A program made the position numbers and the translations under genes. 64,000 nt of DNA from an uncultured Syntrophaceae bacterium (GTDB lineage: Bacteria; Desulfobacterota; SM23-61), in NCBI GenBank assembly GCA_964484485.1, contig CAZAGD010000043.1, positions 5,660 through 69,659 of the forward strand, written 5' to 3'. Of the stretch, positions 1-58,251 are shown piece after piece; within the stretch, counting starts at the first letter, position 1; every line of letters starts with the position of its first letter. Under the pieces are notes generated by a model. The model was given only the letters and a program-made list of their open reading frames with translations, did no database searches and had not been told where the DNA came from.

Positions 1-141
1 TCTACTGAAAATGGAAACACAATTTGGGTGGCCCAGGGATCCATGGAGGGTAAAAGAGGCGAAAAACCAGGAGACATCTTAAAGCAAATTGTGGCCTCTG
101 CTTTGAAAGACTTGCCTGAAATACCTGCCCCAAAACCTTAA
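1..141 (+). CDS. 3' end of a hypothetical protein (truncated by window start)
   Basis: Open frame 1 (STENGNTIWVAQGSMEGKRG...PAPKP*) ending at TAA 139-141; no recognisable motif. Confidence 0.5.
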   Translation, partial: STENGNTIWVAQGSMEGKRGEKPGDILKQIVASALKDLPEIPAPKP

Positions 142-231
142 TTTAGTTTTCAATTCAGTCTTCAAGAATTACTTGGTTTTCCTCATTTAAAATCAGAGTA
201 GCCAAATAATTTAAAGCAAAAATAGAAAAAT

Positions 232-344
232 CTGACCGTCGATCAGTTTTTAAATTTCAATTTAATTCAGGCGGGAGGGAGAGACGCTCCCCCCTCCCGC
301 CTGTTTCCTGCTGGCGATAAATATTAAAACTTTTAGACGGTCAG
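232..344 (-). mobile_element. MITE family A, copy 1 (113 bp, internally deleted)
   Basis: Ends CTGACCGTCGATCAG...TTTTAGACGGTCAG; flanks TAGAAAAAT / TGGAAAAAT (9-bp duplication, 1 mismatch); internal GC hairpin at 268-303. Confidence 0.85.
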
Positions 345-596
345 TGGAAAAATATCTTGATCTGCCCAAAGAAAAATTAGATAATTAGTCCCAAAAGTTT
401 CCTCATTTTGCTCTACCAGATTTTTTAAATCCATAAGGTTTTAGGAGGGGAATAGCATTCTATTTATTCGTTTCTGCCGGGGAATGGTTTTTCGATTATT
501 GAAAAAAGATCGTTTATTTAGAGATCTCTCAATAAAAATAAATGAAATAGAAATTTAAGAGGCAGTAGAAAGCCAATTAAAAAGAGGAGGGGGAAA

Positions 597-1634: not shown

Positions 1635-1680
1635 TTTTTTACTTTGAGGATAAAGGAAAGGACAAATTATTAGGAAGGCA

Positions 1681-3612
1681 ATGAAATTCGTTAATTTGAG
1701 AAATATCTACCTTACATTAGTGATCCTTTACGTCTTGGGAATTATGGCCTTCGCCATATTAATGTTTGAACCTCGTGAAGAATTAATTTTGCTTTACCTT
1801 CCCTTTACCTACTCTTTGATTATATTGAACCCCGAGGGAAAGATATGGCGAAGGTTTACACAAAAGAGTTATAAATTTCTTCTCATCGGAGTTTGTTTGC
1901 TTATGGTCGCTACGGTGGTCTATTTTCGTTCTCAGTATAATTCCTTGTTATATGAAAGATTAGGTAATTATTCCCAGGCTGATTATTTCTTTAGCATCGG
2001 TCTTATTATTCTTGCCTTTTTATTGACTTGGGCTAATTATGGGGGAAGCATACCAATATTAGCTTTGATCGCTTTAAGTTACGCTCACTTTGGCCAATAT
2101 TTTCCGGGCTTCCTTTATCATAAAGGTATATCAATAGAAAGAATTATAGCCATATCAGCAACTGAATTTAATTCGGGCGATGGCGTTTTGGGGTCTCTTC
2201 CGCAAATTGGCATTACTTGGATTGCTATTTTCACCATCTTTGCCGGTTTGGCTTCTGGGTTTGGAATTTTGGAGTATATCATTAAGATTTCTTATAACAT
2301 TTTCAAAAAGTTTAAATATGGCGTTCCGCAAATAGCCGTCATCTGCAGCATGATTTTTGGCATGTTTTCAGGAAGTGGGGCAGCTAATGTAGCTGGGACT
2401 GGGTCCTTTACCATACCTTTAATGAAGCGTTACCGAATGCCTCCGGCCATTGCTGGTGCCATTGAGTCGGTGGCTTCATCGGGGGGACAAGTTATGCCCC
2501 CCATAATGGGTGCAGCAGCATTCGTTATGGCAAGTTATTTAGGAAAATACTACTGGCAAATTGTGGTCGTAGGATTTTTGCCGGCCTTTATTTTTTACGC
2601 CTGTGTAGCTTTGGCTGTTTATATTTATTCTCGCCAATTTTTAGAAATACGCGCTGAAGTTGCTACCGAGGAATTAAGAATGTCCCAAATGTCTAAATGG
2701 GAAAAAATCCAAGGGCTACCTTTATTAGTGGCTATTTTAATGCTCATCATAATTATGAGTGTTTATTGGGTAGATGTTATGATTGCCGGGTTGGCCATGA
2801 TTCTTGCTTTTTTAATTACCTGGATTATCACTCAAGTTTTAGCTTCACCCAATAAGACAGAAATGATGCAGAGATTTCTCACCAATTTCCTAAGAGGAGC
2901 AAAAGAGGGAGCAGATACTACTGCCTCTATTACTACCATGATGGCTTGCATTGGGATTATTGTGGCTGTTTTAATTCAAACCGGACTTGCCCAAAAACTC
3001 TCTTTTACAATCGTGGATATCGCTGGGGGCAATAAAGTATTTTTAATCCTCTTAGCCTCGGGATTGTGCATTTTGTTTGGAATGGCTGTTAGTACCGTAG
3101 CTGCCTACATTTTGACTGTAACTCTCGTTGCCCCGGTTTTAGCAAATATGGGGGTCTCTCCCTTGATAACTCATTTTTCTGTTTTCTATTTTGCTATGAT
3201 GGGATTGATCACCCCTCCGGTTGCCCCTTGCTGCGCCGTTGCTTCAGGAATAGCTAAAGAAAGTTTTCTTAAGATATGTTGGTATTCCCTAAAAATAGGC
3301 GTTCCTTTGTTTATTCTTCCGTTGAGTTTCTTTTCTCAAGAAGCCATCATTATGCATGGCCCCAAAACCATTTCAGCTTTTTTTACAGTAGCAATTGCCA
3401 TGGCCGCAATAGTTTTAGGTATTAACCTTGGTTATTCAGGATTAAAATCTGTGGGCAAACGAATAATTTATCTGGGAACAGGTTTGTTTACTCTCTTTTA
3501 TGCCAAATATCATTGGCTATTCTTCGGTATGGCTTTATGTGCTTTATTTATTTTTGTAGAAATTTATTGGCTATATAAAGGAAAATATGATTATATCAAA
3601 AAAATGGTATAG
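1681..3612 (+). CDS. TRAP transporter fused 4TM/12TM permease (TAXI type)
   Basis: Highly hydrophobic; GSGAANVAGTGSFTIP, ASSGGQVMPPIMGAAAF and ITPPVA motifs. Confidence 0.92.
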   Translation: MKFVNLRNIYLTLVILYVLGIMAFAILMFEPREELILLYLPFTYSLIILNPEGKIWRRFTQKSYKFLLIGVCLLMVATVVYFRSQYNSLLYERLGNYSQADYFFSIGLIILAFLLTWANYGGSIPILALIALSYAHFGQYFPGFLYHKGISIERIIAISATEFNSGDGVLGSLPQIGITWIAIFTIFAGLASGFGILEYIIKISYNIFKKFKYGVPQIAVICSMIFGMFSGSGAANVAGTGSFTIPLMKRYRMPPAIAGAIESVASSGGQVMPPIMGAAAFVMASYLGKYYWQIVVVGFLPAFIFYACVALAVYIYSRQFLEIRAEVATEELRMSQMSKWEKIQGLPLLVAILMLIIIMSVYWVDVMIAGLAMILAFLITWIITQVLASPNKTEMMQRFLTNFLRGAKEGADTTASITTMMACIGIIVAVLIQTGLAQKLSFTIVDIAGGNKVFLILLASGLCILFGMAVSTVAAYILTVTLVAPVLANMGVSPLITHFSVFYFAMMGLITPPVAPCCAVASGIAKESFLKICWYSLKIGVPLFILPLSFFSQEAIIMHGPKTISAFFTVAIAMAAIVLGINLGYSGLKSVGKRIIYLGTGLFTLFYAKYHWLFFGMALCALFIFVEIYWLYKGKYDYIKKMV

Positions 3613-3958
3613 TCATTTATTCAATAATAATCAAAATAAAGAGCTCACGTTTGTCTGGCCTTAGCAGAGAAATAAACACCAAGTTAGGTAAAAAATAGGA
3701 GTCTTGAATATATCGTCAATTAGACTTTTCCCCCAAATTTCCTAATATATGATGTACCATTACCAATTTTAGTCAAAGTAGTCCCTTCAAATTTTGATGA
3801 TAGCCCAGTTTCTTTGCTTTCCTTGCTGAGTGAAATCATAAAGAAGCGGTAGAAGACTAGACCAGGCTATTCTAAAAAACTTGACATTTTTAACCTAAAC
3901 TTGTAATTATCATCAATAAAAAATGCGAAATAAGAACATTTGATCCGGAGGTAAAATT

Positions 3959-4741
3959 ATGGAAAAGCAGTATGTACGGTGTGAAATTGCCGAAGGAATT
4001 GCCTTGGTAACGATTGATAACCAGGCTGCTTTGAATGCTCTAAATAAGCCAACTCTTGACCAGTTGGATAAGATCTTTGATGACTTGGCCAAGAATGAAG
4101 AAGTGCAAGGGGTGATTATTACGGGAGCCGGAGAAAAATCTTTCGTCGCCGGAGCTGATATTTCGGAATTTACCCAAATTAAAGGATCAGAAGCGGCCGC
4201 TTTTATGGCTCGGGGCCAAAGAATCTTCGATAAAATTGAAGCTTTTGACCGCCCGGTAATTGCGGCCGTAAATGGATTTGCCTTGGGGGGAGGGAATGAA
4301 CTGGCTATGTGTTGTGATATTCGCATAGCTGCTGAAAATGCCGTATTTGGACAACCAGAAGTGAACTTAGGTATCATTCCTGGCTATGGCGGAACACAAC
4401 GTTTACCCCGCCTTATTGGCCCAGGAAAGGCTAAAGAAATCATTTTCGCTGATGAAAGATTAAGTGCGCAGGAAGCCTGGCGGGTCGGCTTAGTAGAGCG
4501 AGTCGTGCCCAAAGGGCAAGCGGTGGAAGAAGCGAAAAAACTACTCAAAAAAATTATGGCCAAAGGGCCGGTAGCTATTAAAATGGCCAAGAAAGCGATT
4601 AATGAGGGATTGAAAAAATCGCTGCGCGAAGGGTTGGATCTCGAGGCCGAATGTCAAGCTGTCTGTTTTAGCACCGAGGATAAGGATGAAGGAGCGCGGG
4701 CTTTCTTAGAAAAACGCCCCGCACAATTTAAAGGGAAATGA
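3959..4741 (+). CDS. crt: Enoyl-CoA hydratase / crotonase
   Basis: FVAGADI, AAVNGFALGGGNELAMCCD, PEVNLGIIPGYGGTQRL; both catalytic Glu present; upstream of hbd. Confidence 0.9.
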   Translation: MEKQYVRCEIAEGIALVTIDNQAALNALNKPTLDQLDKIFDDLAKNEEVQGVIITGAGEKSFVAGADISEFTQIKGSEAAAFMARGQRIFDKIEAFDRPVIAAVNGFALGGGNELAMCCDIRIAAENAVFGQPEVNLGIIPGYGGTQRLPRLIGPGKAKEIIFADERLSAQEAWRVGLVERVVPKGQAVEEAKKLLKKIMAKGPVAIKMAKKAINEGLKKSLREGLDLEAECQAVCFSTEDKDEGARAFLEKRPAQFKGK

Positions 4742-6061: not shown

Positions 6062-7738
6062 ATGGAGCGAGATTATTTGTTAGAATTGGAGCGGGCTCGT
6101 CAGGCCTGGGAGAAAGAGTGTTATCCTTCTGGGGCAGGAGATCAAGGGGAACGTTTGCCGCGTTTCTCCACTATTTCAGATTTAGAGATAAAGGCTCTTT
6201 ATACTCCGCAGGATACTTCTAATTTAGATTATTTACGCGACCTGAGCTTTCCGGGACAATATCCTTTTACGCGAGGAATTCAGCCTTCTATGTATCGGGG
6301 ACGTTTATGGACGATGCGCATGTTTTCGGGGTTTGGCAGTGCTGAGGATACTAACCGCCGTTACAAATATCTTTTATCTCAGGGACAGACGGGACTTTCT
6401 GTTGCTTTTCATTACCCCACTTTGATGGGCTATGATTCAGATAGCCCCATGGCTCGAGGAGAAATAGGCAGATGCGGCGTAGCCATAGATACTTTAAAAG
6501 ATATGGAGATTCTTTTTGACGGTATTCCTTTAGATAAAGTGACTACTTCCATGACCATAAACCCTCCCGCGGCTATTCTTTTAGCCATGTACATTGCCGT
6601 AGCGGAAAAACAAGGGGTAAGCAAGAAAGATATTGGTGGGACAATTCAGAACGACATGCTCAAAGAGTTTATTGCCCAGAAGACCTTTATGCTGCCCCCC
6701 CGGCCTTCATTACGGATTATCGTGGATACTGTAGAATATTGTACGAAAGAAGTTCCCCGGTGGAACACCATCAGCATTAGCGGCTATCATATTCGTGAGG
6801 CAGGGTCCACAGCCGTGCAGGAGTTGGCTTTTACTTTGGCTGATGGCATTTGTTACGTGGAAGCGTGCTTAGAAAGAGGGATGCAGGTCGATGACTTTGC
6901 TCCCCGCTTATCTTTCTTTTTTAATTCCCATATTGATTTTTTTGAAGAGATTGCCAAATTTCGGGCCGCCCGGCGCCTTTGGGCGCGTATAATGAAGGAA
7001 CGTTTTCAAGCAAAGAATCCCCGTTCTTGGATGCTGCGCTTCCATACCCAGACGGCCGGTTGTTCTTTGACTGCCCAACAGCCTTATAATAATATTGTGC
7101 GCACCACCATTGAGGCGTTGGCCGCTGTCTTAGGGGGAACGCAATCTTTGCATACTAACTCTTTAGATGAAGTTTATGCTGTGCCCACAGAAGAGGCGGC
7201 TACTATTGCCTTGCGGACGCAGCAGATCATAGCTGAAGAGACAGGGGTAGCTAATACCATCGATCCTTTAGGGGGCTCTTACTTCGTGGAAGCCCTGACT
7301 AATAAAATGGAAGAGGAAGCTTGGAAGTATATTCAGAAGATAGATGAACTCGGCGGCATGATTAAGGCCATTGAACTTGGCTACCCCCAGCAAGAGATTG
7401 CCAATGCTGCTTATACTTATCAAAAGCAGTTGGAGAGGAAAGAAAAGATTGTCGTTGGGGTTAATAAGTATCAGATGATTGAGGAACAGCCCATTGAATA
7501 TCTAAAAATTGATCCGGAGGTGGAAAAGCGGCAGTTAAATAGATTGCAAGAAGTTAGGCGGACGCGCCATAATACTAAAGTAAAAACTTGTCTTAATGAT
7601 TTGCGGCAAGCTGCGCAAGGGGCCGAGAATTTGATGCCTTATATATTGGCGGCAGTAAAGGAATACGCCACTTTGCAAGAAATCTGTGATGTATTCAGGG
7701 AAGTTTTTGGAGTTTATCGTGATCCGGGAATGTTCTAA
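6062..7738 (+). CDS. Acyl-CoA mutase large (substrate-binding) subunit, isobutyryl-CoA-mutase-like
   Basis: [50 protein letters not shown]; no B12 domain; F88/Q206 at the MCM Y89/R207 positions. Confidence 0.9.
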
Positions 7739-15678: not shown

Positions 15679-15759
15679 TATTTTTTTATTTTCTCAGATA
15701 CTTTAAAAGATTTTAATAAATTAGCTTTTTTTCTTTGGACATGTCAATATCAAGTAATC

Positions 15760-15927
15760 CTGACCGTCTAACAGTTTTAATATTTCTCCCCAGCAGGAAA
15801 CAGTCCAGAGGCAGGCGGGACTGTTATTTCCCGCCCTTACCTATAAAATGACAAGTGCCTCATTTTAATGAGCCTCTTTCCCATCCCCCTAAATTTGGCC
15901 CAAATTTCAAAATTGATCGAGGGTCGA
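15760..15927 (+). mobile_element. MITE family A, copy 2 (168 bp)
   Basis: CTGACCGTCTAACAG...TGATCGAGGGTCGA; flanks CAAGTAATC / CAAGTATTC; internal GCCTCATTTTAATGAGCC at 15857-15874. Confidence 0.8.
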
Positions 15928-24209: not shown

Positions 24210-24263
24210 CCCTCCCAACATCCCTTTAGAAAAGAGCGGAATCCCCCTTCTCTTTTTTTCTAA
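24205..24263. repeat. Degenerate family D hairpin repeat
   Basis: CCCTCCCAACATCCCTTTAGAAAAGAGCGG...CTCTTTTTTTCTAAGAG resembles 53922-53994. Confidence 0.35.
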
Positions 24264-24997: not shown

Positions 24998-25291
24998 CTG
25001 ACCGTTGATCACTTTTAATATTTATCGCCAGCAAAAGACAGGCGGGAGGGGAGAGGTAAAATTAAAATCGGCTGGGAATTGCTTAACTCCTTCTTACCCA
25101 CCCTTTATCCGCCATAAACAGCGGGGATAAACTTATCTTGAAAATAAAAACGCGAATAATTCTCCCTAATTTAAAGTGCAGACTTTTTTATTCCCCGCCC
25201 ACGCCGATGAAAGAACCAGGGCCTCATTTTAATGAGCCTTTCTCCCTCCCGCCTGAAATAGGTACGAATTTCAAAAGTGATTGACGGTCAG
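24998..25291 (+). mobile_element. MITE family A, copy 3 (294 bp, full length)
   Basis: CTGACCGTTGATCAC...GTGATTGACGGTCAG; perfect 9-bp duplication AAAATATCG (24989-24997 / 25292-25300). Confidence 0.9.
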
Positions 25292-25389
25292 AAAATATCG
25301 ACCTTGACTTTTCATTCGGCACAGTTAATATAATTAAAAATTTATTTGTAAATTTATCCTACAAAAAATCGAGTGGGGAGGGATAATTT

Positions 25390-26531: not shown

Positions 26532-26566
26532 AATCTCCTCTAGCCCCTCCTTAAAAAAGAGGGGAA
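26532..26566. repeat. Family D hairpin repeat
   Basis: AATCTCCTCTAGCCCCTCCTTAAAAAAGAGGGGAA. Confidence 0.5.
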
Positions 26567-28001: not shown

Positions 28002-28598
28002 ATGGAAAAGCTAATGAGCTTGGCCACTCAATTAAGCCGCTATAGCTTGAGGTTTGGTGGAACCTTAGTTCTTCTGGCTGCTCTGCTTATTGGCGTAGAC
28101 GTGATTTTGCGCAAATTCTTTCAAAGTTCCATCGGAGGTGCCGATGAGCTTGCCGGTTATGCTTTAGCCCTCGGCACCTCTTGGTCGCTGGGAGCAACCT
28201 TGTTAGACCGCGCGCACATCCGCATCGATTCTTTATATTCCCTCTTCCCGCGGGGATTTCGTCTTTTTTTAGATTTTATTGGATTGATCCTCTTTTTAAG
28301 TTTTTTCGGCTTAGTTGCTTGGCGTGGTCTGAGTGTCATGGAGCAGTCTTGGGTTTCCTCGTCGCGAAGTCATACAGCCTTAGCTACCCCCCTGATTATT
28401 CCCCAATCAATTTGGGTCATAGGTCTCCTAATCCTCATCTTTTTGGGAATTATCCTTTTCGTGCGCGCCGCCTTGCTCGTATGGCAGGGAGAAATTGCTG
28501 CTGCCTCTCGAGCTATCAGCACCCGTGCAGCTGCTGAAGAAGTGGAAGAAGAGGTGCGCTATCTTAAGGAGCGTAAGCCTAAGAGGATGGAGTCCTGA
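28002..28598 (+). CDS. dctQ: TRAP transporter small permease DctQ
   Basis: 4 TM; DVILR, GADELAGY, HIRID. Confidence 0.88.
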   Translation: MEKLMSLATQLSRYSLRFGGTLVLLAALLIGVDVILRKFFQSSIGGADELAGYALALGTSWSLGATLLDRAHIRIDSLYSLFPRGFRLFLDFIGLILFLSFFGLVAWRGLSVMEQSWVSSSRSHTALATPLIIPQSIWVIGLLILIFLGIILFVRAALLVWQGEIAAASRAISTRAAAEEVEEEVRYLKERKPKRMES

Positions 28599-29884
28599 TG
28601 CTCGGGACAGCTTTCTTAATCCTTATTGGACTCCTTGCTTTTGCTGTGCCTGTGGCGGCTGGGCTGGGAATTTTGGGCTTGGCTTTAGAATGGATTTATT
28701 CGAAGCTGCCCCTTAATATGGCCTTAGGTGAAATCTCTTGGGCTACCTCAAATAACTTTTTGCTGGTAGCTATTCCTTTCTTTGTTTTGCTGGGTGAAAT
28801 TCTCCTTCGTTCGGGAATAGCCGAAAGAATGTACAATTCTCTTATCCTTTGGGTGCCTTGGCTGCCAGGGGGGCTCATGCATACTAATATTGTCTCCTGC
28901 GCTATGTTTGCCGCGACTTCTGGATCGAGTGTCGCTACTGCCGCTACTATCGGCACTGTCGCCCTGGGGGAAATTCAGAAGCGGGGGTATTCAGAACGCC
29001 TTTTCTTAGGAACAATTGCGGCCGGCGGTACATTGGGTATCCTTATCCCACCATCGATTAATATGATCGTTTATGGAGTGCTTACTGATACCTCGATCCC
29101 CAAATTATATCTGGCTGGTTTTATCCCAGGATTTATTTTGGCGAGCTTATTTAGTTTGACTGTCCTTATTTGTTGTCTAATTAATCCTGAATGGGGAGGC
29201 AAACCTATTCCCGCTACATGGAGGCAAAGACTTAAAGCCCTACCCGACCTTATACCGCCTATTATTATATTTATAGCAGTTATCGGTTCTATCTATGCAG
29301 GCTGGGCAACGGCTACAGAGTCAGCTGCCTTAGGAGTAATTGCTGCCTTAGCCATTGCTGCCTGGCGGCGTCTTTTGTCCATAAAAATGCTAACCCACGC
29401 CTTTGAAGGAACCATGCGGACAACGGCAATGATTATGGCAATTCTAATCGCTGCCTATTTTCTTAACTTTGTAATGGGTTCTATCGGTCTGCTTAAGAAA
29501 GTAAACGATTTTATTATGGGTCTGCAACTAACTCCCAGGCAATTACTTTTTGCTGTTATAGTTTTCTATGTCATTTTAGGCATGTTTATGGAGACTCTCT
29601 CTATGATGGTAGCTACTGTGCCAATTATTACGCCGATTATGGTAAAAATGGGGTTCGATCCTGTATGGTTTGGTGTTTTAATCGTGATCCTCATGGAAAC
29701 GGCCATGATCACCCCCCCAGTTGGTATTAACCTTTATGTGGTGCAAGGCCTGCGCAAGAGCGGACGCATCAACGATGTCATTATTGGCGCTTCCCCTTTT
29801 GTACTGGCTATGTTTGCGATAATGGCTATTATTTCATACTGGCCTGAACTTGTCCTCTGGTTGCCCAAAGTACTGGAAAGATAA
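28598..29884 (+). CDS. dctM: TRAP transporter large permease DctM
   Basis: SGSSVATAA, GGTLGILIPPS, ITPPVGINL. Confidence 0.93.
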   Translation: MLGTAFLILIGLLAFAVPVAAGLGILGLALEWIYSKLPLNMALGEISWATSNNFLLVAIPFFVLLGEILLRSGIAERMYNSLILWVPWLPGGLMHTNIVSCAMFAATSGSSVATAATIGTVALGEIQKRGYSERLFLGTIAAGGTLGILIPPSINMIVYGVLTDTSIPKLYLAGFIPGFILASLFSLTVLICCLINPEWGGKPIPATWRQRLKALPDLIPPIIIFIAVIGSIYAGWATATESAALGVIAALAIAAWRRLLSIKMLTHAFEGTMRTTAMIMAILIAAYFLNFVMGSIGLLKKVNDFIMGLQLTPRQLLFAVIVFYVILGMFMETLSMMVATVPIITPIMVKMGFDPVWFGVLIVILMETAMITPPVGINLYVVQGLRKSGRINDVIIGASPFVLAMFAIMAIISYWPELVLWLPKVLER

Positions 29885-30068: not shown

Positions 30069-30184
30069 CTGGATTCTTGCCTGCTTCAGCCTGCTTCAGC
30101 CTGCTTCAGCCTGCTTCATGCTTCCGCAGGAATGACAAATATCAGCCAACGAATGAGAGTGTCATTCCCGTGAAAACGGGAATC
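30069..30184. repeat. Family C (dRS3-like) pair with internal 4 x 10-bp tandem expansion
   Basis: CTGGATTCTT-(GCCTGCTTCA)x4-TGCTTCCGCAGGAATGAC, then GTCATTCCCGTGAAAACGGGAATC (exact ATTCCC-N8-GGGAAT at 30164-30183). Confidence 0.8.
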
Positions 30185-30239: not shown

Positions 30240-31106
30240 TTATTCCTTGAAATCATATAGATTCGCTGGATTATCAGCTAATACAGCTCGGCGGATCGAT
30301 TCATTGGGTATCCATTCTAACAAAAGATCCAGAAGATCTGCCTCTTCTGGCTTATTTCCAGGTGTATGATTGGGATGAGGCCAGTTGGTAGCCCAAACTA
30401 AGCGATCAGGACGAACGGAGACTAATGCTTTAATTTTCTCGCCGACGTCTTCATAATGAGGGGGTCCTGATAAACTGGCCAAATAGGGAGCAGAAATTTT
30501 TACCCAGCATCTGCCCGTTTCCAGGAAACGGAGGAGTTCCTGAAATCCGGGATCGTTGATTCCTTTTTCAGGAGGAGTTCGCCCCACATGGTCAATAACC
30601 ACATCCACAGGGATTTTTTTCAAAATTGGAATCGCGGCGGGGAGCCAATTGCCGCGGTCTTGAATTTGGAGGTGCCACCCCAAAGGAGCAATGCGTTTGG
30701 CCATTTCTGGGACATCGCTCATGCGGAAATCATCTACTAAAAGGTAGAAACGCAGCCCCCGCATTCCGCCCTCGTGCAGCTTTCGCAATTCTGCATCACT
30801 TATATCTTTTTTGGTCACCGCCACTCCTCGTGCCCGTGCTAAACCTAATTGTTGGATAGCATCGAGAGTGCAACTATTGTCGGTGCTGTAGAGGGAAGGC
30901 TGAACAATTACACATCTTTCTATACCCAGGCGATTAAGCATTGTTTTATAAGCTTCGAGCGAAGCCAACCAATTTGTGGGCCGACGTCCTGGAAAAGGTG
31001 GATATTTATCAGCTGGACCATAAATATGGGCATGAGTATCGCAAGACCGCGGCGGCGCTATCATACGGGGTTTACGCCCTTCACCTGGAATTATTAATGG
31101 GAGCAT
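30240..31106 (-). CDS. Amidohydrolase_2 family lactonase (LigI / 2-pyrone-4,6-dicarboxylate lactonase-like)
   Basis: CDTHAHIYGP, LGIERCVIVQPS, VIDHVG, WVKISAPY, WATNWPHP. Confidence 0.75.
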   Translation of the reverse strand: MLPLIIPGEGRKPRMIAPPRSCDTHAHIYGPADKYPPFPGRRPTNWLASLEAYKTMLNRLGIERCVIVQPSLYSTDNSCTLDAIQQLGLARARGVAVTKKDISDAELRKLHEGGMRGLRFYLLVDDFRMSDVPEMAKRIAPLGWHLQIQDRGNWLPAAIPILKKIPVDVVIDHVGRTPPEKGINDPGFQELLRFLETGRCWVKISAPYLASLSGPPHYEDVGEKIKALVSVRPDRLVWATNWPHPNHTPGNKPEEADLLDLLLEWIPNESIRRAVLADNPANLYDFKE

Positions 31107-31135
31107 AAAATAAACGCCATCTTAATGCGTGGTTC

Positions 31136-31208
31136 GGCAAGCCCCAAGGGCTTGCCCTACGAGAAATTTAAAAAACCTCAAATGTAGGGCAAGGGCTTGA
31201 CCCTTGCC
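31136..31208. repeat. Family B REP doublet (REPIN-like)
   Basis: 31136-31160(-) GTAG-GGCAAGCCC-TTG-GGGCTTGCC and 31184-31208(+) GTAG-GGCAAGGG-CTTGA-CCCTTGCC; perfect stems, 23-bp spacer. Confidence 0.8.
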
Positions 31209-31374
31209 GCATTTGGTTTTATTTCTTATATGCAATTACGACCCAATTTCATTGGGGAAACTCGATAAAGCCAGACCACGGAGTAAGATAAGAGTGATAA
31301 CTGTAAATATTTAATTGCTCCGATTAATAGGTATATTTCTTTTTTAATGAAGTCCATGGTGATTCCTTCCTTTT

Positions 31375-38024: not shown

Positions 38025-38261
38025 AATAGCACCTCCCTTTTTTTGTTCCCCTTCTTAGATAGGACTGCTTATAAAAGCATTCCTGAAGGGCGACATCGCC
38101 TTTCGTATAAAAGAGTACATCTTTTCTTGTTAAGGAAATTTTTGTTTTTTGATAAATTGGCGCCCTGCTCAAAATTGATAAAAATTATGCTGATAGTTGA
38201 ACTTTTCAAATTTTTTGAATATTAATATTTAAAACCCCCAACTTGTCAAGAGGATTTTTGA

Positions 38262-38444
38262 CTGACCGTCGAACAGTTTTATTTTTCGCTCCCAAATGTG
38301 ACTGAGCGGAAGGGGGAGAGGCGAAATTAAATAGCTCCTTATCTTCCCCCCCCTGCCTATAAAAAAATAAGTGCCTTATTTTAATGAGCTTTTCCCCCTC
38401 CTGCCCTGAATTGCGCTGAAATCTAAAAAGTGATCGACGGTCAG
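38262..38444 (+). mobile_element. MITE family A, copy 5 (183 bp)
   Basis: CTGACCGTCGAACAG...GTGATCGACGGTCAG; flanks GATTTTTGA / GATTTTGGA; internal GCCTTATTTTAATGAGCT. Confidence 0.85.
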
Positions 38445-38451
38445 GATTTTG

Positions 38452-43047: not shown

Positions 43048-43172
43048 AATTATTACTCGGAGCAATTAAATATTTACAGTTATCACCCTCACCTTCCTCC
43101 ATGGTGATGGTCTTATCGACTTCCCCGAATGAGACTGGGTCGTAATTCGAAATAAGAAAGGAAATCAAATGA

Positions 43173-43197
43173 GGTAAGGGATAAAACCTTGCCCTCC
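43173..43197 (-). repeat. Family B REP-like element (degenerate)
   Basis: Minus strand GGAG-GGCAAGGT-TTTAT-CCCTTACC. Confidence 0.45.
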
Positions 43198-43230
43198 AAA
43201 TCTGGTCTATTGCCCATCTCGTAATTTCAT

Positions 43231-43277
43231 AACTCCCCCTTCTCCCCCTCTTACTTTAAGAGGGGGTGGGGGGGCGT
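43231..43277. repeat. Family D hairpin repeat
   Basis: AACTCCCCCTTCTCCCCCTCTTACTTTAAGAGGGGGTGGGGGGGCGTT. Confidence 0.55.
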
Positions 43278-43391
43278 TAAACCCTTGCGCCATGAATTAT
43301 ATTTAGCAAGCGGCAAGCTGAATCTGCATCAAGATGTCATTCATTTTATGCTCCCATTAACAATTCCCAAAAATTATTCTTTCTTCGGTTT

Positions 43392-48930: not shown

Positions 48931-49222
48931 TTGACCGTCGATCAGTTTTTAAATTCCACGTTAATTCAGGCGGGAGGGAGAGAGACTCATTAAAATGAGG
49001 CACATATTCTTTCATAGGTACAGGCGGGGAAATAGACATTTATTTTAAAAGAAGGAAGCTATTATTTAAGTTTATCTGGCAGGACAAGTATGTCCCCGCC
49101 GTTCTTGGCGGAGAGAAGGTGAGTAAGAGAGGAATGGTCATTTCCCAGCCGATTTTAATTTCGCCTCTCCCCTCCCGCCTGTTTCCTGCTGGTGAGAATC
49201 ATTAAAACTGTTAGACGGTCAG
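48931..49222 (-). mobile_element. MITE family A, copy 6 (292 bp, full length)
   Basis: TTGACCGTCGATCAG...CTGTTAGACGGTCAG; flanks ACAACACCC / ATAACACCC; colinear with 24998-25291. Confidence 0.88.
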
Positions 49223-52476: not shown

Positions 52477-53520
52477 TTAAGTGTTAAAGATATTCGGATT
52501 GGTGGCTAAATAGAGGCATTGTTCTTTGTCTACAATACCCCGGGTTACTAAATCTTTCAAGGATTGGTCCAGGCTAATCATCCCGTACTTTTGGCCCGTT
52601 TGAATGGCGGAGGGGAGCTGAGCCACTTTCCCCTCACGGATAAGGTTGCGCACAGCGGGCGTACCGATCATTATCTCTACGGCAGGAACGAGACCCCGCC
52701 CATCCCGCCTCTTCAAAAGGACTTGAGAAATAATGGCTTGGATGGATTCGGCAAATTGGGCTCGTACCTGTTCTTGTTGATGAGCAGGAAAAACATCGAT
52801 AATGCGATCTATGGTTTTGGCCGCGCCGCTTGTATGAACTGTGGATAGGACTAAGTGGCCAGTTTCGGCGGCCGTTAGGGCTAAAGAAATGGTTTCTAAG
52901 TCCCGCATTTCACCGACCAGGATTATATCAGGGTCTTCGCGCAGAGCGCTGCGCAGCGCATTGGCAAAACTATGGGTATGAGCTCCTATCTCCCTTTGGC
53001 TGATCAAACATTTTTTAGATTCGTGCACAAATTCAATCGGATCTTCAATAGTGATAATATGCCCCCGCCAAGTATTGTTTATGATGTCAATCATGGCCGC
53101 TAGGGTGGTTGATTTACCACTACCAGTAGGGCCAGTTACTAAAATTAGGCCTTTTTCATTTTTTACCACTTCCCGCAATTGGCGCGGCAAACCAAGTTGC
53201 TCTAAGGTCATAATCTTAGAAGGAATTACGCGAAAGACTATGCTATCCCCCCGAGCCTGACGAAAAGCGTTGACCCGGTAGCGAGCTACGCCTTTTAATT
53301 CCAAAGAGAAATCTAACTCATGCATTTCTTCAAATTTTTTCCGCTGCTGGTCGTTGAGGACGTCATAGAGCATCTTGTGAATTTCTTCGCGGCTAAGAGG
53401 TGGCATTTCAATCCTTTTCATCTCCCCATGGATGCGCACCATGGGTGATTCGCCAGCACTCAGATGTAGATCAGAAGCATTCTCCTTTTGGACAAAAATT
53501 AAAAGTTCCGAAATATCCAT
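52477..53520 (-). CDS. pilT: Type IV pilus retraction ATPase PilT
   Basis: GPTGSGKSTT, LREDPDIILVGEMRD, AVRNLIRE motif. Confidence 0.93.
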   Translation of the reverse strand: MDISELLIFVQKENASDLHLSAGESPMVRIHGEMKRIEMPPLSREEIHKMLYDVLNDQQRKKFEEMHELDFSLELKGVARYRVNAFRQARGDSIVFRVIPSKIMTLEQLGLPRQLREVVKNEKGLILVTGPTGSGKSTTLAAMIDIINNTWRGHIITIEDPIEFVHESKKCLISQREIGAHTHSFANALRSALREDPDIILVGEMRDLETISLALTAAETGHLVLSTVHTSGAAKTIDRIIDVFPAHQQEQVRAQFAESIQAIISQVLLKRRDGRGLVPAVEIMIGTPAVRNLIREGKVAQLPSAIQTGQKYGMISLDQSLKDLVTRGIVDKEQCLYLATNPNIFNT

Positions 53521-53602
53521 TTTTCACCTTTCTTTCCCAATTCTTGGTTAATTAGTGACCTTAAAATTTATATGTCAAGTGTTTATACCGGACTCAAAAG
53601 AT

Positions 53603-53630
53603 TTATCGGCAAAGAAATAAAGAAACTTCA
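53603..53630 (-). promoter_or_regulatory. Putative sigma28-like promoter of pilT-pilU
   Basis: Minus strand TGAAGTTT-N12-GCCGATAA versus FliA consensus TAAAGTTT-N11-GCCGATAA. Confidence 0.55.
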
Positions 53631-53662
53631 CTCAATATCTATATTTATAGCTTACTTATTTA

Positions 53663-53687
53663 AGCCAGGGTAAAGCCCTTTCCCTAC
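53663..53687 (-). repeat. Family B REP-like element
   Basis: Minus strand GTAG-GGAAAGGG-CTTTA-CCCTGGCT. Confidence 0.6.
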
Positions 53688-53716
53688 GGGCAAATATGGA
53701 ATAAATGATGATAAAT

Positions 53717-53751
53717 TGGAATAATGGAATAATGGAATATTGGAATAATGG
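53717..53751 (+). repeat. 8-bp tandem repeat TGGAATA(A/T) x4
   Basis: TGGAATAA-TGGAATAA-TGGAATAT-TGGAATAA-TGG; related degenerate tract at ~53878-53913. Confidence 0.75.
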
Positions 53752-53921
53752 GGAAGGGAGCGAAGCGGGGAGCAAGGAGCAGGGCGCAGGGCGAATAAAA
53801 GTGCTGCAGTTGGGTAGCGGGACAATTAAAGGCCAAGCGGAAAGCGCAGCGAGTTAGTGTTGAATGTTAAAAGAAAGGGAATGATAGAATATTCGAATGG
53901 TGGAATATTGGGGTGAATCGT

Positions 53922-53994
53922 AATCCCTCCCCACCTCCCTTTAAAAAAGGGAGGATCAACTCCCCTCTTTTTTAAAGAGGGGACGGGGGAGATT
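53922..53994. repeat. Family D double hairpin
   Basis: CCTCCCTT/AAGGGAGG and CCCCTCTTT/AAAGAGGGG stems inside outer AATCCCTCCCC...GGGGAGATT. Confidence 0.7.
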
Positions 53995-54106
53995 ATAGAA
54001 CGCAGATTATCGCTGATTTTCAGGATTAAAAATAATTATTTAAAAATTTTTTCTCTATACTACATACTTGCAAACCCTTTAAATTTTATTAAGTAAAAAG
54101 ATGACT

Positions 54107-54315
54107 CTCCCAGAGCTCGCCGAGCGCCCGGAGAAAGAAATGAATAAAATTATTAAAAAATGTTAAAGAAAAAATATAGAATAACGGAAAATTGGGTTAA
54201 TATTCTCTTTATTTTTTTTCTCTTTTTGGCAAATAATTCATCTCTGTGTGCTCTGGGCCCTCTTTGGCTTATAACTAAAAATTTCTCTGCGTCCTCGGCG
54301 CCCTTGGCGGTGAAA
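54107..54315. repeat. Family E inverted repeat arms around an AT-rich spacer
   Basis: CTCCCAGAGCTCGCCGAGCGCCCGGAGAAAG facing TCTCTGTGTGCTCTGGG and TTTCTCTGCGTCCTCGGCGCCCTTGGCGGTGAAA. Confidence 0.45.
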
Positions 54316-54345
54316 CATTTTAGCATTTATGGCTGTCCGTTCTGC

Positions 54346-54460
54346 GGCAAGGGCCAAGCCTTTGCCCTACGAAACTTCGCGATAAATTTTTATTAATCTT
54401 CGGAAGGCAAGGCTTTGGGGCTGTGACCTCTTTTCAGCAGGGGATGAACCCTTGCCCTAC
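54346..54460. repeat. Family B REP cluster (2 clear copies + 1 degenerate)
   Basis: 54346-54370(-) GTAGGGCAAAGGCTTGGCCCTTGCC; 54436-54460(-) GTAGGGCAAGGGTTCATCCCCTGCT; degenerate + strand copy ~54402-54428. Confidence 0.75.
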
Positions 54461-54603
54461 GCCTTACTACGTTGCTTAATGTGCTATTTAAAACCTTATA
54501 TAAAAAATGGCTAAATGCCTTAAAAGTTATTATTTTCGGAATTGCAGCCGAAAAATTAAACCTTTCATCCTTCAGAGAGGTATTATGGACAAGAACAAAA
54601 AAA

Positions 54604-54631
54604 TTGCAAAAAGAAATTGATGTGTTAGAAT
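54604..54631 (+). promoter_or_regulatory. sigma70 promoter of xerD
   Basis: TTGCAA-N16-TAGAAT with extended TG; start codon 7-10 nt downstream. Confidence 0.5.
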
Positions 54632-54637
54632 AAATTT

Positions 54638-55552
54638 TTGATGACTGAGGAGATTAAAAAAAACTTGGACTATTGGCTAGACAGTTATCTGCATTATTTG
54701 GCCGTGGAAAAAGGATTGAGCCCCCATACCCTAGAGGCTTATGCCCATGACTTGCAGGGATATGCTCTTTTTCTAAGAGACCAAGGGGGAGAATTGTGGA
54801 AAATAAACTCCTTGGAGGGAATGAGAAAATATTTCCAGGAGTTACGTTCCCGAGGCATTTCTCCTCGTAGTCAAGCGCGGATTCTTTCCGCTTTGAGGGG
54901 GTTTTATAAATTTTTAGTTCGGGAGCAGGCCTTGGCTGAGAACCCGCTGCAGCAATTGCCTACCCCCAAAATTACCCCCCACCTTCCCGAGATACTCAAT
55001 GCTCAAGAAATAGAAAAACTTTTGGATCAGCCCAACCGCCAAAATTCTTTAGGGATTCGCGATCGGGCCATGTTAGAGCTTTTATATGCCACGGGTCTGC
55101 GCGTCTCCGAATTAATTCATCTCACCTTGAATGATGTCAATTTAGATTTAGGCTATGTGCGCACTAAAGGGAAAGGGGGGAAAGAGCGAATTGTCCCTTT
55201 AGGCGGAGAAGCTCGGCGAGCCCTTTTAGAATACCTCCAAGGCCCTCGCCGGCAGGCCCAAGAGAAAGATGGGGAGGCTACTTTATTTTTGGGAAAGAGA
55301 GGGAAGGGTATTTCGCGCCAGGGATTCTGGAAAATAATTAAAAAACATGCTTGGGCCGCGGGGATAAACAAAAGAATCACTCCGCATATGCTACGCCATT
55401 CTTTCGCTACCCATCTTTTAGAAAGAGGTGCCGACCTTCGTTCTGTACAATCAATGTTGGGACATGCCAATATCGCCACTACGCAAATTTACACCCATGT
55501 GTCCCGGGAGCATTTAAAACTAATCCACCGTAAATATCATCCCCGGGGTTAA
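54638..55552 (+). CDS. xerD: Site-specific tyrosine recombinase XerD
   Basis: VEKGLSPHTLEAY, RDRAMLELLYATGLRVSELI, TPHMLRHSFATHLLE.GADLRSVQ.MLGH...TTQIYTHV, HPRG. Confidence 0.92.
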   Translation: MMTEEIKKNLDYWLDSYLHYLAVEKGLSPHTLEAYAHDLQGYALFLRDQGGELWKINSLEGMRKYFQELRSRGISPRSQARILSALRGFYKFLVREQALAENPLQQLPTPKITPHLPEILNAQEIEKLLDQPNRQNSLGIRDRAMLELLYATGLRVSELIHLTLNDVNLDLGYVRTKGKGGKERIVPLGGEARRALLEYLQGPRRQAQEKDGEATLFLGKRGKGISRQGFWKIIKKHAWAAGINKRITPHMLRHSFATHLLERGADLRSVQSMLGHANIATTQIYTHVSREHLKLIHRKYHPRG

Positions 55553-55554
55553 AA

Positions 55555-58251
55555 ATGGACGTGATTACCACCCATATTAATGCTGATTTTGATTCTTTGG
55601 CCTCCATGCTGGCAGCCAAGAAATTATACCCCCAAGCCGTCATTGTTTTCCCGGGATCGCAAGAAAAAAATTTACGGGACTTTTTTGTGCAATCGGCATT
55701 TTACGTAATGGAGACCAAGCGCTTGAAAAACATCCCTTTTGATAAAGTGCGCCGGCTAATATTAGTGGATACCCGCCAACCTGGCCGCATAGGGAAATTT
55801 GCTGAATTAGCTCAGCGACCCCATGTGGAATTACATATTTTTGATCACCATCCGCCATCTGCAGAAGATCTGCATGGGCAGGTAGAATATATTCAAGAAG
55901 TGGGCGCCACTATAACCGTATTAATTAAAATTTTAAAAGAGCGGGGGATACCTATTAATGCCGAAGAGGCTACGATTATGGCCTTAGGATTATACGAGGA
56001 TACAGGATCTTTTACTTTCACTTCGACTACTAAAGAAGATCTGGAAGCAGGGGCTTTTCTCTTGGCTCACGGGGCTAATTTGAACATGGTGGCCAACATG
56101 ATTACCCGCGAACTTACCTCGGAACAGATTTCCCTCTTGAACGAATTGATCCATAGTAAGACTTCTTATCTCATCAAAGGCCTGGAGATAGTAGTGGCCA
56201 AAGCTACGGCTAATAAATATGTAGGAGATTTTGCTCTCCTGGTGCATAAGTTACGAGACATGGAGAATATACGGGTTCTTTTCGCTTTGGCGGAGATGGA
56301 GGACCGCGTTTATTTTGTGGGGCGGAGTAGTATTCCCGAAGTCAATGTGGGGGAGATTGCGGCTCTTTTTGGCGGAGGTGGGCATCCTACAGCAGCCTCA
56401 GCATCCATCAAAGGAATGAGCCTGGCCCAAGTAGAAGAAAAGCTTTTGACTTATTTGGAAGGTCGCCTGCCAGCGACAAAGTTGGCCCGCGATCTGATGT
56501 CTTTTCCGGTAAAGACCGTTGGGGTAAATGATACTATAGCCCATGCCAGTGAATTGCTTACCCGCTATAATATCAATGTTTTGCCGGTCATGGATAAAGA
56601 AAAATTAGTTGGTCTAATCTCCCGGCAAGTAATTGAAAAGGCGGCTTATCATGGATTCCGGGATGCTCCCGTTAAAGATTATATGACGAGCGAATTTGCT
56701 ATTGTTCATCCGCGCACCGCCTTGACTAAAGTGCAGGACATAATAGTAGGCCATAACCAGCGGTTTTTGCCGGTTATGGATAAAGATAAATTGGTAGGCG
56801 CCATCACCCGTACCGATCTGCTCCGCTGGATGTATACCAGCACTCATCAATCTTGGCCTGCTCCTGCCGAAAGAGAATTTTCAGCCCTCCGCCCGCGCAC
56901 CAAAGGAGTGGCAAACATCTTAGAAGAACGCTTACCGAAAGATGTACTTTCCTTAATGAAAACCATCGGGGAGATGGGTGCTAAATTAGGCTATCAAGTA
57001 TATGCTGTGGGCGGATTCGTCCGGGACCTTCTGCTGCGGATTGAAAATTTTGATATTGATATTGTAGTCGAAGGGGAGGGGATTAAATTAGCGCAACTCT
57101 TAGCGGAGCAGGGAGGCGGTCAAATTCAAGTACATAAAAAATTTGGCACAGCTACCTTAATCTTTCCCCAAGGAAGGCGGCTCGATATTGCTACCGCCCG
57201 CTTAGAGTATTATGAACATCCAGCCGCTCTTCCCCGTATCGAACATAGCTCTATCAAACTTGATCTTTTTCGCCGAGACTTTACTATAAACGCTTTAGCC
57301 CTCCACCTCCACCCGCAACACTTTGGGGAATTGATAGACTTTTTTGGCGGGCAGAGGGACCTGAAAGAAAAACTTATTAGGGTTATTCATAATTTGAGTT
57401 TTATAGAAGATCCAACCCGCATTTTTAGGGCCCTGCGTTTTGAACAACGGATCGGTTTTCAGATTGCCCGCCATACGCAGATGCTCATGGAAAATGCAGT
57501 CCGACTTGAACTTTTCGGGCGTTTATCAGGTAAAAGACTTTTTCATGAATTGGTACTTTGTCTGGCAGAGGAAAAGCCTTGGCGGGTTATCAAGCGGTTG
57601 GGAGATTATAATTTATTAAAATTCTTTCACCCCCGGCTAAATGTAGACCGATCTCTGGAGAACCTTTTTCAAAATTTGGAAAATGTTATCTCTTGGTATC
57701 AACTCTTATTTACGGGGGAGAAGTATGATAAATGGCTAGTATTTTTCCTAGGGTTGGTTGAACATCTGAACGAAAAAGAAATTCAAGACTTATTAAAAAG
57801 ACTTGCTCTTCCAGAAAAATTCAAAGAAAGATTTTTAGAAAATAGACGGTTGGCCTGGAAAGTGGAAGAAGAACTAATTCGTTATCCAGGGCTAAAGCGG
57901 AGCGAAATATATTTCCTGCTCAAGCCCTTGCCGGTTGAATTCCTTCTTTATGCTATGGGGAGAACAAGCTCGGCCGAGGCCCGCAAGGCGATTTCCCTTT
58001 ATTTTACTACTCTAAAACCAGTCCAAGTTTTGTTAAAAGGAAAAGATTTGAAAAAATTGGGATATCCGCCGGGGCCGATTTATAATAAAATCTTTCATGA
58101 CCTGCTCCGGGCTCGTTTAGACGGAGAATTGCATACTTATCAAGATGAAGTTGCTTTTGTGCAAAAACATTTTGCCTCTAATCGCGATATGGCTAAAGAG
58201 GATGGTTACCTAATTAATTTAACTTCCGCGAAGGAAAGGAGTACAGTTTGA
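55555..58251 (+). CDS. tRNA nucleotidyltransferase with N-terminal DHH/DHHA1 and CBS domains (A-adding-like)
   Basis: THINADFD, DHH, GGGGHPTAASA, CBS pair, VGGFVRD..DIDI, ARLEYYEHPAALP, RRDFTINA, EDPTRIFRA. Confidence 0.88.
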   Translation: MDVITTHINADFDSLASMLAAKKLYPQAVIVFPGSQEKNLRDFFVQSAFYVMETKRLKNIPFDKVRRLILVDTRQPGRIGKFAELAQRPHVELHIFDHHPPSAEDLHGQVEYIQEVGATITVLIKILKERGIPINAEEATIMALGLYEDTGSFTFTSTTKEDLEAGAFLLAHGANLNMVANMITRELTSEQISLLNELIHSKTSYLIKGLEIVVAKATANKYVGDFALLVHKLRDMENIRVLFALAEMEDRVYFVGRSSIPEVNVGEIAALFGGGGHPTAASASIKGMSLAQVEEKLLTYLEGRLPATKLARDLMSFPVKTVGVNDTIAHASELLTRYNINVLPVMDKEKLVGLISRQVIEKAAYHGFRDAPVKDYMTSEFAIVHPRTALTKVQDIIVGHNQRFLPVMDKDKLVGAITRTDLLRWMYTSTHQSWPAPAEREFSALRPRTKGVANILEERLPKDVLSLMKTIGEMGAKLGYQVYAVGGFVRDLLLRIENFDIDIVVEGEGIKLAQLLAEQGGGQIQVHKKFGTATLIFPQGRRLDIATARLEYYEHPAALPRIEHSSIKLDLFRRDFTINALALHLHPQHFGELIDFFGGQRDLKEKLIRVIHNLSFIEDPTRIFRALRFEQRIGFQIARHTQMLMENAVRLELFGRLSGKRLFHELVLCLAEEKPWRVIKRLGDYNLLKFFHPRLNVDRSLENLFQNLENVISWYQLLFTGEKYDKWLVFFLGLVEHLNEKEIQDLLKRLALPEKFKERFLENRRLAWKVEEELIRYPGLKRSEIYFLLKPLPVEFLLYAMGRTSSAEARKAISLYFTTLKPVQVLLKGKDLKKLGYPPGPIYNKIFHDLLRARLDGELHTYQDEVAFVQKHFASNRDMAKEDGYLINLTSAKERSTV

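Follow-up and report, generated by a model that had tools for sequence, protein, structure and literature searches.

A gene-free spacer between pilT and xerD of a hot-spring bacterium is probably an accretion zone for palindromic mini-elements

The spacer between the genes pilT and xerD of an uncultured hot-spring bacterium (G+C 43%; closest named relatives, metagenome-assembled genomes (MAGs) of the Thermodesulfobacteriota) is very probably an accretion zone, in which non-autonomous, gene-less palindromic mini-elements have piled up between divergent promoters. It occupies positions 53521-54637 (1117 bp) of the 64,000-nucleotide stretch analyzed here, which is called the window. The identities of pilT (52477-53520, − strand) and xerD (54638-55552, + strand) were confirmed by NCBIfam, and because the two genes are divergently transcribed, the spacer contains both of their upstream regions. 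Between two conserved divergent promoter blocks lie about 900 bp of repeated DNA, from 53632 to about 54565. This DNA is an insert, its parts are multicopy, whole modules are polymorphic, and two of its repeat types are linked at the family level to genes: repetitive extragenic palindromes (REPs) to the REP-associated tyrosine transposase (RAYT), and a 10-mer arm to genes for GxxExxY proteins. A preliminary description made from the sequence alone had reported a gene-free repeat mosaic here, and that observation is confirmed, with the features it listed lying where it had placed them or a few bases away. The longest open reading frames (ORFs) of the spacer, of 78, 57 and 50 aa, have no Pfam match, leaving no credible gene, and a search of the spacer against Rfam gave nothing at the gathering score and only chance-level matches (E 0.14-0.6).

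A comparison of orthologous loci defines the insert (L-numbers denote loci or contigs from other genomes or metagenomes compared with the window). The syntenic relatives L007, L008 and L009, whose XerD proteins are 83, 81 and 75% identical to that of the window, have spacers of 219, 425 and 410 bp. Only the pilT-side block and the xerD promoter block are kept in them, and 53632 to about 54565 is extra in the window; L008 and L009 carry other, unrelated extra DNA at the same spacer. Both kept blocks lie outside the insert. The pilT leader and promoter-side block (53521-53631, − strand) is conserved by alignment in all four orthologous spacers, as are the boxes TTATCGGCAA (53603-53612) and GAAACTTCA (53622-53630) within it. 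The xerD promoter block (54595-54637, + strand), defined by a promoter scan and by invariance in the four orthologous spacers, holds the promoter itself, TTGCAA, 16 nt, TGTTAGAAT (54604-54631), which the scan and the alignment both place there.

The closest relative in this comparison, L436 (XerD 92% identical), has a spacer of 870 bp, in which the left 640 nt match the window colinearly at about 88% identity. It lacks three pieces of the window. The first is one TGGAATAA unit and the second a module of 69 nt (54164-54232). The third, a block of about 190 nt (about 54264-54456), runs from the end of R1, the first of two tandem pyrimidine arms, to the REP called c, and takes in the second arm, R2, and three right-hand REPs. 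Conversely, L436 keeps a pyrimidine arm that the window lacks. These differences establish a presence/absence polymorphism of whole modules at an orthologous site, the kind of place where the preliminary description had proposed to compare filled and empty alleles. They also support the reading of the spacer as a lineage-specific pile of dispersed gene-less repeats. Contigs L001-L006, from the same species, are 99.9% identical to the window and are therefore uninformative on variation.

The multicopy nature of the insert is evident from metagenome depth. Contigs of four hot-spring metagenome runs were aligned to the region at ≥80% identity. In run X1 the flanking genes have a depth of about 45 and the spacer pieces 120-3800, or 3-85 times the flanks, so that every spacer piece is multicopy in the community. 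The GGAAT tract reaches 3300-3800 (75-85 times single copy), a depth that may partly represent low-complexity cross-matching to other organisms and to that extent weakens the case. Positions 53981-54042 stand at 1400-1800, the family D hairpins at 500-900, the family E arms at 500-880 (about 11-20 times single copy), and the REPs at 220-370 (5-8 times). Over the GxxExxY-type left arm in the spacer the depth is 31-40 times single copy, and a separate estimate for the arm in run X1 gave about 25-30 times. Contigs of the same depth as this genome hold 53878-54047 and 54144-54314 at other places, and contig joints link the spacer modules in other orders.

The REPs provide the first of the two gene links. 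They read GGCAAGGG..loop..CCCTTGCC with a CTAC(G) tail and so qualify as REPs of the GTAG type (compare Di Nocera 2013, PMC3733652). The REP core CCYTTGCCCTAC (at most one mismatch) has four copies in the 64 kb, three of them in the pilT-xerD spacer, against 0.79 expected, and none of 100 shuffles reached four. Tails TTGCCCTAC(G) are located at 53679-53688, 54362-54371, 54452-54461 and 31152-31161, and GTAGGGCAA at 31184 on the − strand. Counted by pattern likeness, the window holds seven copies, with inverted doublets at 31137-31211 and 54344-54423. REP a (53664-53688, + strand) is a degenerate GTAG-type copy, GCCAGGGTAAAGCCCTTTCCCTACG, with a weak fold (z −0.24), and is better preserved in L436. 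The REP cluster at 54344-54461 comprises REP b (54344-54371, + strand; −7.2 kcal/mol, z −1.8), a degenerate REP (54401-54423, − strand) and REP c (54435-54461, + strand), and for the doublet at 31135-31213 the folding energy is −21.8 kcal/mol (z −4.9). REP copies are also present in six contigs of a congeneric MAG. Outside the spacer, 31087-31329 and 43051-43367 are copies of an intergenic repeat of about 280 bp (81-88% identity), the first of which has the REP doublet; relatives of this repeat with a REP doublet are found in the Deltaproteobacteria MAG contigs L014, L021, L052 and L072.

A search of one-genome-per-species contigs with the 24-nt REP pattern GCARGGGNNNANCCYTTGCCCTAC returned more than 102 stretches, often inverted doublets about 50 nt apart (loci L010-L111 among the matches listed). 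Bacillota, Actinomycetota, Acidobacteriota, Chloroflexota, Margulisiibacteriota, Saganbacteria and Thermodesulfobacteriota are represented among the matches listed. Such a spread is unexpected, because systems of REPINs (REP doublets forming hairpins) and RAYTs are usually described as lineage-bound. Locus L087, from Saganbacteria, has a REP on either side of a 156-aa ORF, which is a RAYT (Pfam Y1_Tnp, E 9e-12). A REP pair in another Saganbacteria locus, L108 (4168-4366), encloses no more of a RAYT gene than its opening codons and its final ~26, an internally deleted, or 'emptied', RAYT. The bracketed gene and this remnant uphold the REP-RAYT pairing that the preliminary description had suggested. 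When 632 ORFs from about 100 REP loci were clustered, no gene recurred beside REPs, as expected because RAYT is single-copy. The 24-nt pattern also occurs in gut Oscillospiraceae and Eggerthellaceae. In addition, of the two copies of an inverted-repeat element GGCAGGCATGAATGAAGAAGCATCGG ... CCACTGCCTCATGATTCTGAATGAATGCCTGCC (L062 ~6160-6440 and L111 ~3900-4130), one has a lone central REP and the other a REP doublet, REPs being nested there in another palindrome.

The second gene link involves the AACGCAGATTATCGCTGATTTTCAGGAT motif at 53998-54026 (+ strand). The community consensus of this segment, derived from other metagenome copies, is GGACGCAGATGAACGCAGATTTTCAGGAT; the window arm matches it at 25 of 29 positions and has ATT in place of the consensus ATG. 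It conforms to the left arm GGACGCAGATGAACGCAGATnnTCAGGAT, with the sublineage variant ATTATC common to L139 and L179. No in-frame GxxExxY ORF accompanies it, tblastn with a GxxExxY protein finding nothing in the window. In place of the inverted right arm ATCTGCGnAAATCTGCGTCC there is only a decayed pyrimidine arm, TTTCTCTATACTACATACTTGC (54050-54071), and 53996-54075 folds no better than chance (z −0.03). With neither a proper right arm nor a fold above chance, the window copy is a decayed solo left arm of a GxxExxY cassette.

Copies in other sequences reveal what such an arm belongs to. A 25-nt arm pattern is present in at least 120 metagenome contigs from many biomes, with G+C contents of 33-61%, and 117 distinct arm contexts were classified among the matches listed. 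Gene-less hairpins, with the inverted right arm within 120 nt, account for 52 of the 117 contexts; the right arm lies 121-450 nt away in 15, the arm is solo in 41, and it stands at a contig end in six. The remaining three are filled: the arm runs in frame into an ORF of 133-146 aa, with the right arm straight after the stop codon, and the start codon is the ATG within the arm (MNADFQDFKY...). A fourth filled copy, in L112, has a degenerate arm and lies beside an empty copy. Canonical gene-less hairpins fold at z −4.0 and −5.5. Canonical empty elements have perfect terminal inverted ends, GGACGCAGAT...ATCTGCGTCC, and no target-site duplication was discernible in their flanks. The view that the arms are ordinary coding or regulatory sequence without gene-less copies is contradicted by the 52 hairpins.

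The filled ORF matches TIGR04256, 'GxxExxY protein' (E 9e-41). The model covers residues 12-123, so that the part encoded by the arm extends the protein N-terminally, beyond the conserved domain. At least 120 clusters of 131-aa proteins, 75-96% identical, start with MNADxQDFK, and their sources name Elusimicrobiota, Deltaproteobacteria and Thermodesulfobacteriota among the matches listed. Clustered at 50% identity, the wider GxxExxY family comprises 16,256 representatives. Among 126 diverse ones, at least 25 have arm-encoded peptides, either N-terminal (MNAD, MDAD or QMNADERR) or as a C-terminal read-through (IRVHPRxSA), which makes the arms a family-wide companion of the gene. The arms are directly readable at L428 and L435. 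In L435, a Thermodesulfobacteriota MAG, filled, empty and truncated copies lie side by side, and one GxxExxY gene has R2-type arms on both sides. Residues D73, E83 and K85 and the G-x-x-E-x-x-Y motif are at least 90% conserved. An AlphaFold2 model (predicted local distance difference test score 93.6) weakly resembles Cas4, lambda exonuclease and the Hjc resolvase (E 5e-4 to 7e-3), and no solved GxxExxY structure is detectable by sequence. The corresponding Pfam family is PDDEXK_3, which Steczkiewicz et al. 2012 (PMC3424549) list as 'Unknown'. No description of inverted arms or gene-less hairpin derivatives of GxxExxY genes was found in the literature.

Judged from these sequences, the AACGCAGATTATCGCTGATTTTCAGGAT motif is the end-piece of a widespread, undescribed cassette with a putative PD-(D/E)xK nuclease gene. 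Filled cassettes encode the GxxExxY family (TIGR04256; PDDEXK_3), whereas the window has a decayed arm and no gene. The suggestion that GxxExxY genes are flanked by such motifs thus proved sound, the 10-mer motif being the 5' arm of cassettes that exist both filled and empty. Two further features of the family were seen. At L428 (2486-2930) a complete cassette sits between hemB (ALAD), 18 nt upstream, and a radical-SAM/SPASM gene, 76 nt downstream; this insertion in a tight operon gap was seen in seven samples. The arm-encoded residue 5 of the filled genes (proteins P0121-P0240) is mostly Y or I (MNADYQDF, MNADIQDF), and the gene-less hairpins were retrieved with an F variant, GATTTTCAGG; the hairpins may descend from one arm sublineage.

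A broader proposal, tentative and less likely than not, is that the GxxExxY PD-(D/E)xK protein serves as the dedicated partner enzyme of a family of palindromic mini-elements across phyla, a second system of the REPIN-RAYT kind. In such a system the gene would sit between the inverted periodic arms, gene-less derivatives would outnumber it, and gene-less hairpins would pile up in mosaic spacers, nested with REPs and other hairpins. If true, this would assign a role to the family of more than 16,000 clusters (50% identity), whose function is currently unknown, and would explain where many 'orphan' intergenic palindromes come from.

The other motifs of the mosaic behave differently from independent cassettes. 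Family D, the 10-mer arm, the purine arm, the AT loop and the pyrimidine arms occur in the same order at unrelated loci. The block 53921-54318 aligns with L139 429-799 (71% over 402 nt, with two tandem units in L139), with L179 3009-3312 in a proB-proA spacer, and partly with L136, L166 and L197. With this fixed order of recurrence, D, the 10-mer arm and E behave as a single composite unit of about 400 bp, and not as the independent insertions that the preliminary description had supposed. The D double hairpin (53921-53995) folds into a three-way junction at −22.5 kcal/mol (z −4.8; none of 200 shuffles equal), and has other copies in the window at 26544-26564 and 24210-24262 as well as in L136, L139, L197 and L436.

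Family E begins with a purine arm (54101-54136) and an AT loop, AAATGAATAAAATTATTAAAAAATG, which together span 54101-54163 (+ strand). The 69-nt module, a GGAAT-like T-rich sequence (+ strand) absent from the L436 allele, lies within the E loop, an arrangement also found in L166 and L197. The right side consists of the two tandem pyrimidine arms (+ strand), R1 (54241-54268) and R2 (54282-54316; TTTCTCTGCGTCCTCGGCGCCCTTGGCGGTGAAAC), which have a second copy at L062 128-210. The arms are weak in the window (19 nt, 79% complementarity, fold z −1.5). In canonical E copies the pyrimidine arm follows straight after the loop, giving a hairpin with a loop of ~27-35 nt (z −5.8). Scans of IMG/VR found 94 stretches with CACAGAG x3 and 20 with CTCTGCG..CTCTGCGGTGAAA. 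Family E was rejected as a cassette on this basis: the IMG/VR arms are hairpins or lie upstream of unrelated phage genes, with no GxxExxY gene there, and arms that are far apart enclose unrelated phage genes. One further arrangement was seen in L166 (296-708), where a DUF433 ORF (E 6e-27) and a truncated DUF5615/PIN-like ORF (E 4e-15) lie between E pyrimidine arms and the 10-mer arm, the place where other copies have the D hairpin. By sequence they are probably a toxin-antitoxin pair.

These results bear on the explanation that was first advanced, under which empty cassettes entered one hotspot separately and now stand in an array, each family with its own small protein (TIGR02436, GxxExxY, DUF559 or RAYT). 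The REP-RAYT and 10-mer arm-GxxExxY pairings hold, the R2-type arm pair flanks a GxxExxY gene in L435, and modules are present or absent between the window and L436, all of which this explanation would account for. The fixed order of D, the 10-mer arm and E contradicts it, and the CACAGAG and CTCTGCG-type arms are mostly plain hairpins or stand beside unrelated phage genes. The GGAAT tracts of viral contigs proved uninformative, being low-complexity sequence of a generic kind. No TIGR02436 or DUF559 gene was met beside any motif in about 3 Mb, examined by clustering and eye rather than with hidden Markov models (HMMs), and the pairing suggested for these two families gained no support in that sample. 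By ORF clustering and inspection of the same 3 Mb, no small-ORF family other than GxxExxY recurs beside the motifs, nor did one show up in loci of the hot-spring lineage, and neither D, nor E, nor the GGAAT tracts could be assigned a gene of their own. The idea that each repeat type has its own protein therefore survives for two of about five types, REP-RAYT and 10-mer-GxxExxY; likewise 'empty cassettes' is apt for RAYT and GxxExxY but not for typical E copies, which are plain hairpins. Separate cassettes at one hotspot are accordingly unlikely as an account of the whole spacer.

Less likely still is that the site is no hotspot and that a single composite element of about 0.9 kb entered it once and has since decayed. 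This account is favored by the colinearity over about 400 bp with L139 and L179 and over 640 nt with L436. Against it, at least three module-sized indels and one tandem-unit change separate the window from L436; M1 (the tandem-repeat unit at the left of the insert), REPs and E arms are each found alone elsewhere; and the different, unrelated extra DNA of L008 and L009 lies at this very spacer.

The spacer might instead be a functional locus. It could give rise to a structured RNA or to a multi-GGA small RNA acting as a CsrA titrator, or it could lie between the divergent genes as their terminator or insulator. The many GGA motifs in 53717-53910, the strong D hairpins and the terminator-like matches at 53949-53967 are what such a locus would display. 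The region is nonetheless absent from syntenic relatives, its parts are multicopy and present at unrelated loci, Rfam returns nothing below E 0.1, and promoter and terminator counts are not above those of shuffled sequences. A search of RNA runs returned none that contains the stretch. The GGAAT/purine tract has no structure (fold z 0.03). The CsrA-sponge RNA in particular was rejected for its absence in relatives, its multicopy parts and this unstructured tract, and a functional locus of any of these kinds is very improbable. Finally, short-read assemblies break at repeats and Logan contigs end within the spacer, but an artefact of assembling a repeat-rich metagenome has next to no chance of being the explanation, since three independent assemblies (ENA and two samples of the Joint Genome Institute, JGI) span the whole spacer at 99.9% identity and L436 has a diverged colinear version.

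The accretion of gene-less mini-elements is thus the preferred reading, and a course of events can be suggested for it. Extra DNA would be tolerated between the two divergent promoters. A RAYT gene at another place in the genome would supply the enzyme that spreads the REPs in trans. The GxxExxY-type arms would descend from full cassettes by loss of the gene, as miniature inverted-repeat transposable elements (MITEs) do from transposons, and would then spread as hairpins or within the composite block. New units would tend to land in or beside the loops of earlier units, producing a nested mosaic. By analogy with MITEs and REPINs, the non-REP elements are presumed mobile and GxxExxY is their presumed enzyme; the copies now in the spacer are mostly decayed and probably inert.

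Several observations weigh against parts of this reading. RAYT is absent from the window and from about 90 kb of close-relative contigs (tblastn), and the REP-RAYT link for this genome is therefore inferred. The GxxExxY gene is likewise absent from the window and about 90 kb of close-relative sequence, and its coding part went undetected in run X1 at ≥80% nucleotide identity, though the arm is multicopy there; any mobilizing enzyme of this genome is thus putative. Target-site duplications and transposition events were not observed, so mobility of the non-REP elements is read from their distribution. In addition, the hairpins may act in termination, RNA stability or protein binding.

A comparison with described repeat systems places the mosaic more precisely. 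Short intergenic palindromes are common in bacterial genomes, and to our knowledge GTAG REPs are the only ones among them with a known mobilizing enzyme, RAYT. The second large REP class lacks a mobilizing enzyme (Di Nocera et al. 2013, PMC3733652); the CGTC-tagged REPs of the same paper have short stems of 8-9 bp, unlike the periodic arms here, and were rejected as a match for them. The REPs of the window share with the REP/REPIN-RAYT system (Bertels and Rainey 2011, PMC3116915) short imperfect palindromes, a GTAG/CTAC tag, an extragenic and multicopy distribution, inverted doublets, and a sequence family that brackets a Y1/HUH RAYT in L087. They differ in that one 24-nt pattern spans many phyla, whereas REPIN-RAYT systems are described as lineage-bound and vertically inherited; furthermore, no RAYT was seen in the sequence of this organism that was examined, and REPs make up about 15% of the mosaic.

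Gene-less elements derived from autonomous ones, among them MITEs and the Correia, RUP, ERIC and similar sequences, offer a second comparison. As with them, many gene-less hairpins stand beside few gene-bracketing copies; unlike them, the enclosed gene encodes a GxxExxY PD-(D/E)xK protein rather than a known transposase, and its start codon lies inside the left arm. The bacterial interspersed mosaic elements (BIMEs) of Gilson, Bachellier and colleagues are said to be enterobacterial intergenic mosaics in which REPs and other short motifs follow recurring orders. The spacer is likewise an intergenic mosaic that combines REPs with several short motifs in recurring orders, but the other motifs and the phylum are different, the arms have a periodicity of 7-10 nt, and one motif is tied to a nuclease-gene cassette. 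In cyanobacteria, Elhai et al. reportedly described (2008, Genome Research) nested small dispersed repeats (SDR) and tandem heptamers (short tandemly repeated repetitive sequences, STRR), for which we know of no associated enzyme. Units of 20-30 nt nested in one another and in short-period tandem repeats are common to both cases; sequences and hosts differ, and here RAYT and GxxExxY genes can be connected with part of the repertoire.

The locus itself is decayed, and its interest centers on the GxxExxY link and the cross-phylum REP family. A second repeat type is tied at the sequence level to a small putative nuclease gene, in filled, emptied and solo forms from many biomes, and the same arms are found on at least 20% of diverse GxxExxY family members. 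One REP sequence family is common to several phyla. Between divergent promoters, elements of this kind accumulate in nested mosaics, and the 1.1-kb gap is best read as decayed selfish DNA rather than a missed protein or RNA gene.

The remaining modules complete the map of the insert. Unit M1 (53695-53808, + strand) is a (TGGAATAA)n tract followed by a purine-rich heptamer tract terminating in GAATAAAAGTGCTGCA. Tandem Repeats Finder (TRF) resolves these as TGGAATAA x4.4 at 53717-53751 (score 63) and AGCAGGG x4 at 53764-53791. M1 recurs in the L179 proB-proA spacer, where 2911-2993 is 89% identical to 53725-53808 over 84 nt. An exact-pattern scan of viral contigs with the M1 purine tract gave no matches; a heptamer tract, GGAGCAG x3, was seen in 61 stretches of viral contigs (IMG/VR, L327-L387). 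The linker that follows (53809-53877) is low-copy and common to the window and its close relative L436 only. The second GGAAT tract (53878-53913, + strand; core 53879-53909) terminates in GGGGTGAATCG and belongs to a 170-bp unit, 53878-54047, present elsewhere on a contig of the same depth. An AT-rich loop (54027-54100, + strand), which contains the decayed pyrimidine arm, was compared with L136 2100-2160, L139 and L436. The tail of the repeated DNA (54462-54565), partly common to L436, ends in a small hairpin (54522-54565).

Other elements of the window lie apart from the spacer. A MITE-like element of about 200-300 bp has five copies in the 64 kb (227-386, 15719-15925, 24998-25292, 38253-38450 and 48932-49222; identity 74-94%). 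Its inverted ends are built around AAAGTGATCGACGGTCAG, and its interior bears the motif CATTTTAATGAGCCTTTC.CCCTCC; one of its ends is found at L062 1-52. A perfect 10-bp tandem repeat, GCCTGCTTCA x4 (30079-30118; TRF score 80), lies between the ORFs 28598-29884 and 30240-31106. Directly after xerD, in the window and in all relatives, comes an 898-aa DHH-DHHA1-CBS-PolyA_pol protein (55555-58251), which matches the model for A-adding tRNA nucleotidyltransferase at 1047 bits, under the curated cut-off of 1440.

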